From a virus (taxonomy: Duplodnaviria > Heunggongvirae > Uroviricota > Caudoviricetes), in the IMG/VR virus record IMGVR_UViG_2609459844_000005, positions 1-10,872 of that record: a stretch of 10,872 bases of DNA, one strand, 5' to 3'. Shown here in pieces: positions 1-6,000 of this stretch. The stretch's first letter is position 1, and each line of letters opens with the position of its first letter. The position numbers are program-made.

Positions 1-3000
1 TCAAATAACCAGCTTAACCCATTCCTGACCTCGAGTATCGTTATAGCGATCGGTGGTTGCCTGGACTTTATGTCCTAGTAATGTTTTTGTATCGATACCC
101 TGTGCACGGTACAGCCGTTCTGATAGAGAGCGTTGTTCATGAAATGTTGGCGGAGTTTTTCCTGCTGGTGGAATTATCCCAGCCAGATCCCGTGCTTTGG
201 CAAAGTAGTCGCTCAGGTTGTCTTTACTCATCGGCTTCGGTTGTTTCTGGTGCCGACTATGGATTAGATATGGACTTAATATTCTGTCTCGGCACCCATC
301 AATAACTTCTTTTAACGTTATCCCAATGGCATCACAGCGTAGTGTAAGCGGTAACGCCAGACGCATTCCGGTTTTTCCCTGGGTGATATGCAAGTGTTCG
401 TTCCACACATCTGAAAAACGCATGTGGCAAATGTCATCACGGCGCTGACCAGTAACAATCGCAAGAAGCATTGCGTTACGGATAAAGTGTTTTTCAGGCG
501 TTGCATTGTAAATTTTTTGCCAGTCTTCCATGGTGAGCCTGGCTCTGGTTACTTTAGGGATCGGTTTACGGGTAGCCTCCGGAGGATTCCATCCAGGAGG
601 AACTTCCCCTGCATGCTGTGCTTCTTTATAAATATCAACCCATAATCCACGATTTACTCTCGCTGTGCTGACCATGTCTTTATCCAGCCACTCATCCAGT
701 ATTAATGCAAAGTCTCTTACTTCCAGTTCTTTCAATGGGGGGTTTCCCAGACGGGAAACCAGGTATGCAGCCATTCGAGTTTTTTCTTTGTGAGTTGTAG
801 CTGCAATATCTCCATTTTTCAGTCGCGTGTCCTGTATTTTCAGATATCGATCAACCCATGCCTTTAATCTGATACCCCGACGTTTTGTTGCTGACGGACT
901 TTCATCAATTTTGCGCATGAAATATTCAGCTTCTGCTGCAGCTATTCGCTGATTGGCTGTGGAAGCGATTTTTTCTGCCTTACCTTTGTCTGTTCCGAGT
1001 CCGTGAAATTTTCCAGTCACAGGATTTTTATACTGGTAGTAAACTCTGCCAGTTCTGCGATCAAACTTTTCGTAAAGACCGGCTACGTCAGTGCTGTTTT
1101 TTCGTGGCCTCGGTGACATGAGTTAAAATCTCCTTCAGTGCATCATCATCGCCAGTATGAATTTCCGGCGCAATTCCCGTTTCACCAGGCCCAACAAATA
1201 CTGCTCGGCGATCTATCAGCCAACGCCCACGAATTTTTTGTGGTCTTGGAACGATGTATCCTAGTTTTCCGTATTTCACCAGGGTAGTGTTTGTTATTGG
1301 GAGACTGAACCGTTTTGGTTTCCACTCGTCGAGCGTTATCAGGTACTGTTCGCTCATGGCTATCACTCCGGAACGCGCCAGTTGCAGAATATCAACGACA
1401 ACTGGCGACGGTTGAACATTAAAAATCAGCCTGACTCGGGATCAGTTTTTGCCAGATAGCTGAAACGTATTTTGCCTGGTAACGGGCGTCATCAAGTGCA
1501 TTATGGCGCTCACCTTCGAATGGAATAGCCGTTCTGGCATCGAAGTCTATGGCTTTCCCCAGCTCAACGATTGTGCGTACATCGCGATCGTTGTAGTAAC
1601 GCCACGGGCAGGGGATCCCCTGCCGTTCGTATGAACGGCGCAAAATCGTGTTGTCGAAGTTGGCTCCATTTCCCCAAACCTGAACAAAAAATTCACCGGA
1701 GTTTTCGTCGATAAATTCCCGCAATTGTAACAGTGCATCATCTAACGGGATTTCATCGGTCATAATGGCAGATTGCGCTTCGCGTGATTGCTTAAGCCAC
1801 CATTTAATGGTGTCCCGATCAATGACTCCGCCAGCAGTTTCCAGATCGATAGTCTTACTAAATTCCGGTCCCATATCTCCGGTTTGCGGATCGAAAAATA
1901 TTGCACCTATTGAGATGATCGGGGCATCAGGATTTTTTCCCATGGTTTCAAGGTCGATCATTAGATGGTCACACGTCCTGCTGGTGGATGTGATTTCTTG
2001 ATGACCGTTCACCTTAATTGAGTGATCTGCCGTCTCGCCAGTTTCATTATCGCTATCGTGATGCTTATTGCCGCCAGTGTTCTCCTTGTGTGGATGTTCA
2101 GCGCCTTCCATTTCCTCCGGATCATCTTCCTGAACTTCAGGCTGATACTCTTCATCGAATGTTTCCTGGTATGTTGCGTCGCCCATTACCGCGCCACAAT
2201 CAGGGCAGTTGCCGCCGCCGGTCTGACCGCAGGCGGTGCAGACTTTTTCCACTTCCTGTTGCGCCACTGATTCAGGCTGTTTCGTTTCTGGCTCGTTTTG
2301 TAACGCATTTGGGCTGTTTTGTTCCGCTTTCTGGTCGTTCTGTTCCGATTCTTGCTGGTTCTGGTTTACAGAATCGCGGGTTTCAATCCCCTTTACCCAT
2401 TTCGGATCATTCGGGTCGCTAATCCCTTCAACAAATTCACCACGTGATACTGCAAGCAGTTCATCGGCGTCAGGCTGGCTGATATTGGCTGCCTGCATAA
2501 TTTTGTTTACTTCGTCAGCGGTAACTTTTACTGACCCTGGTTGTGCGGTCGTGTCAGATGCACCAGTATTTTGTTGTGAACCTGAGTATGTACCGTTTTT
2601 GCGGGCGAAATATTCTTCTTTCGTGATTTCAGTAGCCCCAGCAGACAGCGCCTTATCCAGACCAGAAAGTTTGTTTGCGCGACCGTATTTTTCGCCATCC
2701 TTGTCGGTGAAGAGGAAGTAGAACGGCCCCTCACGTTCTACAGATGGTTCGACTTCCACTTTGCATTCGGTTTTTTCGTTGTCCGGAATTGCCGTTTCCA
2801 CTGCATCAGTTTCTGGTACTGGCGACGAGAGAGTATCAGTTGCGCTCTGATTTGTTCCTTCATCTTCAAACACGCCCTTTGTAGTCAGGTATTCAGTAAT
2901 GTATTTGTTCAGTGCCACAGGGTCTTTGTGAATGTCGATCGGACGTTCACGGACAAGGCCAAAAATAGTCTGGCGGTCGTAGCGAAGGGCATCAGGCTGT

Positions 3001-6000
3001 TTGCGCATTGATGCCGAGATACGCTTCCAGTCTTCGCGGTCGTTGTCGATAACTTCATTTTTTGCCCAGCGATGGATGCTGCCGTCAATGTTTCCGGCAT
3101 CCACATCACCAGGCCAGAGAGCGTAGGCCAGTTCGTCATCCAGTGTTTTCCATGTCTGCTTGTATTCGCGATGAATGGCAGCAATGACCGGGTTGATTTT
3201 TCCTGTTGAATTTTCAGTGTGCTGTTGATTGGTTCTGGCGCGGGCGAGATCAACAACAGACGTGTATTTTCCAGTTTCCTTGCGTTCACCTTCGCGACGT
3301 TTTTTCCAGATGCGCATCTCTGCCTGAATTTCGGGCCATTTGGCACCAGGCTTACATTTATGCTTAACCCACCCGATGGCATGCAGCTTAAGCTCCGGAT
3401 ACATGGCGTTAACATCTGGCATTTTCATCAACGCTTCAACGATATGTCCGTCGAATGTTGCCATGTCTTCCTGCAACAATTCCTGTGCGCTAATAACCAT
3501 ATCAACGGTGATGTTTTCACATGTGTCGAACTTAACCATGACAGCGTTCTGTACTTCAGGGGCCAGCTTGTCAAAAGTGACGTTCATCGGATCGGATTCA
3601 GTCTCAACCGGGACAAAGGAAGCAGACTCCTCATCCCAGCGGTTTTCCTGCATATATTCAGCATCCCAGGAATCGAGGGCAGGGCGGGGTATACCGGGTT
3701 TATCCTCGCAAACAAGAAATTTATAAGCGCAGTCCTGAGCAGCCGGATAATGTTCCAGGAATTGCCAGTGAAATTTTGCTCGAGCACGGCGTTCGTCGCC
3801 AGCTTCAATGGCAGTGGCTACAGCGACTGCACCTTCTTCCTTTATTGCCTGTTCGTCCGGAATGGCGGCGCAAATAAAGACTTTACTCATTTTGTTTTAC
3901 CTCATTACAGATTTAAGGGTGAACAAATCCCTGCCATTGCTGGCATATAAGAATGAAATCGGATGTTTATTACGGAACTGTTTTAAAGACCTGCCGGGAT
4001 TTCGTTATTATCCTGGTGAATAACTTTATCGACCGGGTAACAGTTACCGGGAATTTTCTGTTCGGTTGCTGCAGTCACACACTCCTGCATTGTCCTGTGA
4101 ACACTGACTGCAATATCAACTGGCTCTCCGGAAACAAGAAAAACTGTCAGAACAAGTGCAAATGCTGTATTCATTGCCAGCATCCTTTTTGTATCGGACG
4201 TAAACGGGCCAGCATTGAAAGAATGCATATTTTATTTAATAGCTCCCGTTCGTGTTTTCTCTTGTTAATGGCATCTTCAGTAAATACAGGGTTACTGATA
4301 GTGACACCAATTTCAAAACAACCTTCAGACGTATTAACGTTTGGTAATAACGTTTCCATTATCGCGTCCTCAACAATGAATTTTGTGATGCGGTGCCTGG
4401 TGCCTCCAGGTGACGTTAACCAGTTAACAATTAACGCCGGATAACTCCGGATGGTTGGATAAGCTGTAGTGAGCGAATGCCGGATACCAAAACAGCCGTT
4501 CTTGTTGCCAGGGAGTTTGACAGGAAAGGTGACTGGCGAATGAAATGGGCGACTTACATCCCGGGTCATCCTGACGCTAATGATGGGTGGATAATACCTG
4601 GTGCGTCGTGGATACCATCACACTGGATGCCTCTACCAGAACCGCCGCAGGAGGTGCGCCAATGAACTGGCCTGAAGCATTTGCAATTACAGGCGTTGCT
4701 ATGGCTATCGCTTTTTTAGTATATGTTATTTGTCGGTGGGGGTAAAAACGTTCGCCGGGATTAACACCAAAGGAGGGAATATGTCGGATGATATATCACT
4801 GGCAATGGAAGGTGCGCTGGCTGTTGTTGCTGTTGTGGGCGTTTACTGCCTGGTTGTGTTTTTGATGGATCGACTAGGGAACTGAATTCATTACGATATG
4901 GGAATTCCCATATCGGGTAAAAACGGTTTGCGGTAAAGCGAGAGTTAAGTAGAATTGCAGCGGGTGCTTGAGGCTATCTGTCTCAGGCATGAACACCAAA
5001 AGGCAGATAGAGAAAAGCCCCAGTTAACATTACGCGTCCTGCAAGACGCTTAACATTAATCTGAGGCCCAATCTATGTCTCACAAATGTAGGTTAGCCTC
5101 TTACGTGCCGAAAGGCAAGGAGAAGCAGGCTATGAAGCAGCAAAAGGCGATGTTAATCGCCCTGATCGTCATCTGTTTAACCGTCATAGTGACGGCACTG
5201 GTAACGAGGAAAGACCTCTGCGAGGTACGAATCCGAACCGGCCAGACGGAGGTCGCTGTCTTCACAGCTTACGAACCTGAGGAGTAAGAGACCAGGCGGG
5301 GGAGAATCCCTCGCCACCTCTGATGTGTCAGGCATCCTCAACGCACCCGCACTTAACCCGCTTCGGCGGGGTTTGTTTTTTTCTGGCATTCTGGTTTACA
5401 ATTCGCACACCAGCCTGAACAACTGGCACCTGCTGCGCCAGCAGAGACAACCGATGGCGCACGATACCAAATTACACAATTCTGATGATTCTGCCGTCTT
5501 TGCCAGCAGGCACGGGCGGCGTTCCCGCACTTTCAAATCTGACTGGTTCCAGCATCCCCCATGCACTGAAGAACAGGCCGAGTGGCTAATTCAGTGCTAC
5601 CGCAGACACGGATACGAGATTAAGAAAGCCCTCAGCCTCGATTATCGTCACTGGATAATCTCCGTCAGGCTTCCTTACTCCGAACGCCCACCGCGTCCGT
5701 CCCGCACATTCCAGCAACGCATCTGGAGGTAACGTGCGGGTATTACTTCGACCTGTTCTGGTACCGGAACTCGGGCTGGTGATCGTTAAGCCGGGCCGTG
5801 AATCCATGCCGGTATTCCACAATACCCGGGTACTGGTGGAGCCGGAACCGAAAAGCATGCGTAATCTGCCGTCCGGGGTCGTTCCTGCCGTTCGCCAGCC
5901 GCTGGTGGAAGACAAAACATTGCTGCCGTTTTTCAGTAACGCACGGGTAATTCGTGCTGCTGGTGGTGCTGGTGCATTGTCTGACTGGCTGTTGCGCAAT

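Follow-up and report, generated by a model that had tools for sequence, protein, structure and literature searches.

Full-length RecE, the exonuclease of the Rac prophage in Escherichia coli K-12, boosts linear–linear recombination, and its N-terminal region is without an assigned function (review PMC11611040). The T4 exonuclease A, DexA (PDB 8kel), is a standalone DEDDh enzyme of 227 amino acids, and an E. coli DexA homologue, EcD (also 'HREX'; HAK9828821.1), digests T4 DNA containing 5-hydroxymethylcytosine (5hmC), but not unmodified DNA, and gives protection against T4; among bacteria, Escherichia is the genus with the most DexA homologues (PMC12153337). RNA phages are blocked by further DEDDh exonucleases of bacteria, many of them prophage-borne, that carry auxiliary domains of various kinds (PMC13344964, a 2026 preprint). 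In this study we analysed a stretch of 10,872 nucleotides, hereafter the window (positions 1 to 10,872 of the IMG/VR Caudoviricetes record IMGVR_UViG_2609459844_000005), which encodes an 823-residue exonuclease at positions 1419–3890 on the minus strand. Sequence and profile comparisons show that a DEDDh domain of the DexA/Rv2179c type is attached to this protein precisely where the PD-(D/E)XK 5′–3′ nuclease of RecE would start.

The sequence itself, its generic annotation and every one of its domain types are already known: an identical protein is public, the PHROG family phrog_2082 covers the protein end to end (1–823 of 823), and its 90%-identity cluster holds 23,183 members that carry only names such as 'exonuclease' or '3′–5′ exoribonuclease'. 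Our literature and database searches found no description of an architecture in which a DexA head is joined to the body of RecE. We propose, at a probability of roughly 0.5, that the protein acts as an early-operon 3′–5′ DNA exonuclease that would be brought to its site by a RecE-type platform. The reading frame had been called in an original prediction made from the DNA of the window, and it proved to be uninterrupted, with its own start codon and a ribosome-binding motif. The features of the gene, from its 5′ to its 3′ end, are as follows, with residue numbers referring to the 823-residue protein.

1419–3890, minus strand: exonuclease coding sequence, 823 amino acids plus stop, uninterrupted, ATG start (list of open reading frames (ORFs) and translation)
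3899–3903, minus strand: Shine–Dalgarno-like GAGGT, 8 nucleotides 5′ of the exonuclease ATG (direct sequence reading)
3606–3890, minus strand: N1, residues 1–95, small alpha/beta domain, the first of the scaffold
3273–3605, minus strand: N2, residues 96–206, all-helical, with an AlphaFold 2 predicted local distance difference test score (pLDDT) of 86–97
3159–3272, minus strand: connector, residues 207–244, basic and poorly ordered, net charge +3, isoelectric point 9.8
2856–3158, minus strand: M1, residues 245–345, helical, AlphaFold 2 pLDDT above 90, recognisably common with RecE 278–350 (BLASTP)
2541–2855, minus strand: V, residues 346–450, acidic, Ser/Thr-rich and variable, holding the conserved mini-motif EREGPFYFLF...GRANKL...ITKEEYFARKNG
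2391–2540, minus strand: M2, residues 451–500, with the conserved SRGEFVEGISDPNDPKWVKG motif, equivalent to RecE 460–480 (BLASTP), and a weak DUF4072 match
2247–2390, minus strand: low-complexity tether, residues 501–548, approximately 21% Gln, 19% Glu and 12% Asn
2196–2240, minus strand: Cys4 zinc ribbon, C551-x2-C554-x7-C562-x2-C565 (motif positions in the translation)
1986–2180, minus strand: flexible, acidic, His-containing linker, residues 571–635, 31% Asp plus Glu, net charge −17
2049–2096, minus strand: His patch HPHKENTGGNKHHDSD, residues 599–614, within the acidic linker
1422–1985, minus strand: DEDDh 3′–5′ exonuclease domain of the Rv2179c/T4 DexA family, residues 636–823, with the PF16473 envelope at nucleotides 1452–1967

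The central part of the protein is recognisably that of RecE. The NCBIfam exoVIII equivalog PRK09709 matches residues 245–625 (model positions 270–602) with 274 bits, under its 1269-bit cut-off, and BLASTP against K-12 RecE aligns residues 262–625 with RecE 278–591 (E = 6e-61), with near-identity from about residue 478 onwards; within this stretch lie the SRGEFV.GISDPNDPKWVKG motif, the Cys4 ribbon and the segment rich in acidic residues and His. At the DNA level the body is 76–88% identical to recE, and this similarity ends at about residue 622, which corresponds to RecE codon 588; the end of the homology falls approximately 17 residues short of the RecE nuclease domain (606–866). Pfam finds no match to the PD-(D/E)XK family PF12684 in the 823-residue protein, whereas K-12 RecE matches it at residues 615–850. 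The two proteins are otherwise alike in size (823 versus 866 amino acids) and in their extreme acidity, with net charges of −64 and −65, respectively.

This comparison changes the standing of several features that had first drawn attention to the gene. The CxxC...CxxC ribbon was reproduced at its exact coordinates, and the His-rich stretch and the acidic, Gln/Glu-rich low complexity are likewise real (residues 599–614, 501–548 and 571–635); as special features of the protein, however, they do not survive, since together they form a near-identical copy of RecE residues ~455–591, with the same Cys4 motif at RecE 517–531. We take this near-identity to mean that ribbon, His patch and linker are an inherited RecE tether and nothing peculiar to the 823-residue protein. 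The four ribbon cysteines are retained in RecE and in all Escherichia copies compared, and the ribbon was not seen in any other 50%-identity family representative examined; as a core feature of the family it was rejected because it is restricted to the E. coli cluster and K-12 RecE. We likewise rejected the idea that the His patch holds a functional motif or binds metal, because the His positions vary among copies and relative to RecE and the acidic linker evolves neutrally, with a ratio of non-synonymous to synonymous substitution rates (dN/dS) of approximately 1.2 (1.1–1.4).

The C-terminal head, by contrast with the PD-(D/E)XK (5′–3′) nuclease of RecE, belongs to the DEDDh (3′–5′) exonucleases, as originally predicted. 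PF16473 (Rv2179c-like DEDDh) is the sole Pfam domain of the protein and matches residues 642–813 (E = 1.3e-67, 227 bits against a cut-off of 27) over profile positions 2–177 of 177. The full Exo I/II/III set is present (D646, E648, D746, H796 and D801), and all five residues are invariant in the alignment with T4 DexA, whose sequence is that of 8kel, the only PDB entry with a sequence relationship to the head (profile search, E = 2e-15). DexA itself is approximately 26–28% identical, has extra loops and carries no scaffold.

Closer relatives of the head also occur without a scaffold. Standalone DEDDh versions of 190 amino acids are encoded by phage 1720a-02 (L008:1798-2370; 60% protein identity) and by E. 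coli TUM9754 (L019:2991-3563; 74% DNA identity), and such genes lie in other prophage contexts, adjoining either an EaA-like gene or yfdP/Q/R. The standalone enzymes of phage 1720a-02 and of a CPS-53-like prophage share 57–60% identity with the window protein over the full head and match PF16473 with E = 4e-75. The DEDDh nuclease is thus held by E. coli prophages in both free and scaffold-bound form. In one family representative of 752 amino acids with a RecE-type N terminus and a DEDDh head (P0235), the Exo I Glu is replaced by Lys (VDLKTMG) and the Exo II Asp by Ala (SFANV), so that it may be a catalytically dead member of the family.

The N-terminal part of the protein (residues 1–345) is more diverged. 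An AlphaFold model built with a 22-sequence alignment is confident overall (mean pLDDT 86.5), with values below 50 for residues 207–237, and lays the region out as an alpha/beta N1, a helical N2, a disordered basic connector and a helical M1. When N1 and N2 were aligned together with the RecE N terminus by hhalign, the two profiles matched with a probability of 98% (E = 9e-14, 223 columns), and still with 96.5% once the motif common to both near M1 had been removed, with N2 colinear there with RecE 101–215. Taken singly, N1 reached 93% and N2 just 41%. The N-terminal domains share merely 7–12% identity with RecE, and the match is one at the profile level; it implies that the entire non-catalytic part, residues 1–625, is colinear with RecE 1–591. 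The original prediction had found no assignable N-terminal motif, which holds for our local copy of Pfam but not beyond it: precomputed matches on relatives place the newer Pfam entries PF27430 and PF27432 in this region, and hhalign reveals a diverged RecE N terminus. All folded scaffold domains are acidic, which would make protein binding or self-assembly likelier than simple electrostatic DNA binding. The connector at residues 207–244 is the sole segment with a positive net charge.

A search of residues 1–345 against 1.84 billion cluster representatives yielded 175 relatives, on the longer of which we mapped domains. Nearly all full-length members carry M1, regardless of their N- or C-terminal type, and the N terminus of the family comes in two flavours, a ydfE type (named for the K-12 gene discussed below) and a RecE type, each of which was found with the DEDDh head, with the RecE PD-(D/E)XK head and with a third head. 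The mini-motif in V recurs in relatives with other heads (for example, P0126, P0130, P0133, P0140 and P0225), and the M2 motif is also found in P0134, P0257 and P0258. The third head had no relative in the local Pfam copy or, by profile search, in the PDB; it was the fold search alone that identified it, as a Rad52-fold annealase. It stands alone in Pseudomonas phage PMG1 and is fused to the scaffold in gp07 of Pectobacterium phage ZF40, and in both it is followed by a Sipho_Gp157 gene.

These scaffold–annealase fusions (ZF40 gp07; PHROG 2489) resemble the window protein in their N1–N2–M1 scaffold and in their early-operon place upstream of an integrase, and differ from it in the annealase head and in the Sipho_Gp157 gene that comes after it; the 'exonuclease' label that they carry in PHROGs and GenBank is probably a mis-annotation. 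P0126, P0207 and their relatives bear a fourth head, a C-terminal region of approximately 220 amino acids with a conserved ALNDLLSGRTDVM...GVVS.TGHL motif and no Pfam match. We dropped P0257 as a candidate for this head on a RecE-type N terminus, as its C terminus is unlike that of the P0126 group. Domain mapping thus shows the window protein to be a mosaic product of the RecE family, in which the same scaffold, with either N-terminal flavour, is joined to the RecE nuclease, a DEDDh nuclease or a Rad52-fold annealase. No description of such a head-swapping family, including its Rad52-fold annealase, was found in our literature and database searches, nor any of the identity with ydfE.

How these parts might work together can be proposed as follows. 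The protein would be produced from the early-left transcript upon induction, and its scaffold would serve as an interchangeable delivery or assembly platform for DNA-end enzymes by binding a protein partner or oligomerising, rather than by binding DNA. The DEDDh head would strip nucleotides off DNA 3′ ends by DexA-like two-metal catalysis; a DNA substrate is supported by the fact that the only solved relative of the head is T4 DexA. The target would be broken or replicating phage DNA, on which 3′ tails would be trimmed or breaks widened into gaps, and host recombination or repair would then complete the job. Besides nucleases of both polarities, 5′–3′ and 3′–5′, the scaffold has so far been seen with a Rad52-type annealase and with at least one other head. 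More tentatively, and with the odds leaning against it, the RecE N-terminal region could be a portable platform that phages join to any DNA-end enzyme, recruiting the various heads to one common partner or assembly.

The genomic setting places the gene among early functions of lambdoid prophages. It occupies the slot of exo–bet–gam in lambda, as originally described, and of recE–recT in Rac, being the last large gene ahead of xis–int, and it shares with recE its position upstream of these genes in an early-left operon. The neighbouring genes and other features of the window are the following.

1–1119, minus strand: integrase, downstream of the exonuclease (translation)
1088–1366, minus strand: excisionase, directly downstream of the exonuclease (translation)
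approximately 3983–4174, minus strand: ydfD-like DUF1482 gene, upstream of the exonuclease (phrog_1092/phrog_1251 matches; 99%-identical region of strain M15)
approximately 4171–4359, minus strand: dicB, upstream of the exonuclease (phrog_1092/phrog_1251 matches; M15 annotation; Qin order)
4962–5287: toxin–antitoxin locus of the hok/sok type, comprising an Rfam sok match (4962–5137, 120 bits) and an overlapping ORF for a 70-residue Hok/Mok-like protein (5075–5287)
5734–6789: ORF for a 351-residue protein of the HNH endonuclease family (phrog_96)
6790–7170: ORF annotated in matching phage records as a RusA-type Holliday-junction resolvase
7167–7988: Q-like antiterminator of 273 amino acids with several CxxC pairs
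8563–9612: DNA methylase ORF
9662–9911: transfer RNA genes Met-CAT, Arg-TCG and Arg-TCT, downstream of the methylase, in a region matched by several Stx-converting phage records
9989–10179: small RNA STnc100 (139 bits), following the transfer RNA genes

The order of the genes around the exonuclease matches Qin, a cryptic prophage in E. coli K-12, where the same slot is taken by ydfE (b1577), a pseudogene cut by IS2E. K-12 ydfE is 96% identical to residues 1–256 of the window protein, and this identity, together with the shared slot, makes the window gene an intact ydfE. The gene is the last large one of the early-left dicB–ydfD operon in lambdoid prophages of the Qin/PPompW type, and the complete, isolated phage HannyBb has the same int–xis–exo–ydfD–dicB layout. 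The similarity to HannyBb and to M15 begins at the 3′ end of the exonuclease (window 1375–1410), the integrase and excisionase module of the window being unlike both, which marks a mosaic junction just 3′ of the gene. On the other side, approximately 500 bp of the window (4443–4943) stand for approximately 5.3 kb of HannyBb and 6 kb of M15; the lost stretch held ydfA/B/C, the repressor, cro/cII and the replication genes. With its immunity and replication genes gone, the window prophage is evidently defective, and its exonuclease operon is left without the native promoter region.

An early-operon place beside the host-directed genes dicB and ydfD would also suit a nuclease of host takeover or scavenging, which would digest the DNA of the host, or DNA with nicks, starting at 3′ ends, and so supply phage replication during lytic growth, with the scaffold only regulating or localising it. 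Host DNA scavenging is a further role described for DexA. To our knowledge, temperate lambdoid phages do not degrade the host chromosome, and such a role would leave unexplained why the nuclease is fused to a RecE-type platform that an annealase uses too. We consider it distinctly unlikely.

Several properties of the gene might instead suggest that it is a non-functional relic, a RecE gene whose nuclease was accidentally replaced and which travels as a passive passenger of prophages: the K-12 copy is a pseudogene, many database entries for the gene are fragments, and the gene is itself a recombination mosaic, as indicated by a synonymous divergence (dS) that ranges from approximately 0 to 1.4 by segment when window 1419–3890 is compared with four other copies (L010, L011, L012 and L004). 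Between two E. albertii copies N2 is strongly divergent and M1 is not. Against decay, the folded parts are under purifying selection (dN/dS 0.1–0.35 overall, with 0.1–0.33 in N2 and 0.12 in M1), intact 823-residue ORFs are present in three species (E. coli, E. albertii and E. ruysiae) as well as in an isolated phage, and distant representatives show this architecture combined with the other N-terminal flavour. Because the ORFs are intact, the folded parts are under selection and the active site is complete, we regard a relic as highly improbable.

The gene is widespread in its host. Whole-gene DNA matches, counting partial ydfE and recE matches, occur in 4,803 of 5,426 complete E. coli genomes, and the DNA of the DEDDh domain in 4,223 of them, with a median of two copies per positive genome and a maximum of eight. 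In a scan with the single protein, close relatives were confined to Escherichia/Shigella records and a pair of metagenome bins, one under the label Veillonella parvula and the other under Proteobacteria. Such retention, which extends to copies in defective prophages such as that of the window, is what might be expected under the main competing explanation, in which the protein is a prophage defence nuclease whose DEDDh head selectively destroys the modified-cytosine DNA of superinfecting phages in the manner of EcD, with the scaffold as an accessory. The EcD precedent (PMC12153337) and a head of the same Pfam family, with DexA as its sole solved relative, speak for it as well.

Other observations make this explanation unlikely. 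Both EcD and the window protein are DexA-family DEDDh enzymes of E. coli that may share an enterobacterial homologue group, but, as compared through its cloning primers, EcD was expressed without any scaffold, as a short protein whose first residues are those of the Exo I motif (MIDTET), and has another 3′ end, so it is not the window protein; its description makes no mention of a prophage or of a large N-terminal region (PMC12153337). The 20-mer of the EcD reverse primer gave only chance matches in the viral and metagenome contigs. The DexA residues linked to 5hmC are not conserved in the window protein, in which W152 is replaced by Tyr (RYYNDRD), with Trp at that place in several relatives, and D169 corresponds to Ala in a poorly aligning loop. 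Less clear are the residues of the DexA tetramer: the tetramer-forming D90, the loss of which would be expected of an EcD-type enzyme, falls on D718 of a D718–A719 pair, where a shift of one residue, within the uncertainty of the alignment, would give Ala. PADLOC returned no defence-system match beyond a generic Cas-associated DEDDh model, which is weak (23.5 bits, E = 1.6e-5). The gene lies within a repressed early-left operon and not in the position of a moron expressed in the lysogen, and the other heads on the scaffold are recombination enzymes.

Returning to the proposal of an early-operon DNA exonuclease on a RecE-type platform, a number of points weigh against it. A 3′–5′ exonuclease leaves 5′ overhangs, whereas classical single-strand annealing and RecA loading need the opposite polarity, and a direct role in recombination is therefore not obvious. 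The window copy, in its defective prophage, may not be expressed in the normal way. Fold searches gave no informative structural relative for the scaffold domains, with N2 lacking any relative in the PDB or BFVD. Further, unlike recE, the gene has no recT downstream; none lies between the exonuclease and xis–int, xis coming directly next. Searches with RecT (phmmer) and with a profile of the Rad52-type head found no annealase in the window, in the near-identical prophage region of M15 or in the part of HannyBb that was covered (40 of 45 kb), while both positive controls, including RecT in Rac, were recovered. Annealases of the Red-beta, Erf and Sak4 types were excluded through annotations alone, without a dedicated profile search. 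The HannyBb annotation lists no annealase, and its small early-operon ORFs match only families without an assigned function. The absence of an adjacent annealase that had been noted at the outset is thereby upheld for the RecT and Rad52 types. The original prediction had also named a finding that would tell against it, a standard RecE-like N terminus with an annealing protein elsewhere in the operon; residues 1–625 are indeed RecE-like (PRK09709 over 245–625, hhalign 96–98%), and no operon annealase was found, so that one half of this finding was borne out.

The substrate is a further point on the same side, for the founding member of PF16473, Rv2179c, from which the family takes its name, is termed a 3′–5′ exoribonuclease, and RNA is a possible substrate. 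The protein might then trim the 3′ ends of host or phage transcripts or of RNA-phage genomes, in the way of the prophage 'TONDO' DEDDh enzymes, whose auxiliary domains and activity against RNA phages offer a precedent (PMC13344964). The TONDO set comprises ISG20 homologues of fewer than 500 amino acids, which puts the 823-residue protein outside that screen; the closest solved relative of the head acts on DNA, and the relatives of the scaffold are DNA recombination proteins. An RNA-directed role accordingly appears improbable to us. For the DNA exonuclease on a RecE-type platform, we keep our functional confidence at about 0.5 because annealing pathways do not usually work with this polarity and no partner annealase accompanies it.

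About four-fifths of complete E. coli genomes carry DNA of the DEDDh domain, often more than once. The protein is nevertheless annotated as no more than 'exonuclease', and our literature searches found no study of the whole 823-residue protein. A RecE body with a swapped head ties together the pseudogene ydfE, the enzymes of the DexA family and the N-terminal two-thirds of RecE, itself a mainstay of recombineering. The presence of a Rad52-fold annealase on the same body suggests a general targeting module, and the scaffold is a candidate means of tuning recombineering enzymes. Work on EcD may need to be re-read if EcD is a fragment or relative of these prophage proteins. If the platform reading is true, no natural 'head-swap' of RecE would be more abundant than the 823-residue protein, and its comparison with RecE could reveal the partner of the platform and explain the boost that full-length RecE gives to linear–linear recombination.

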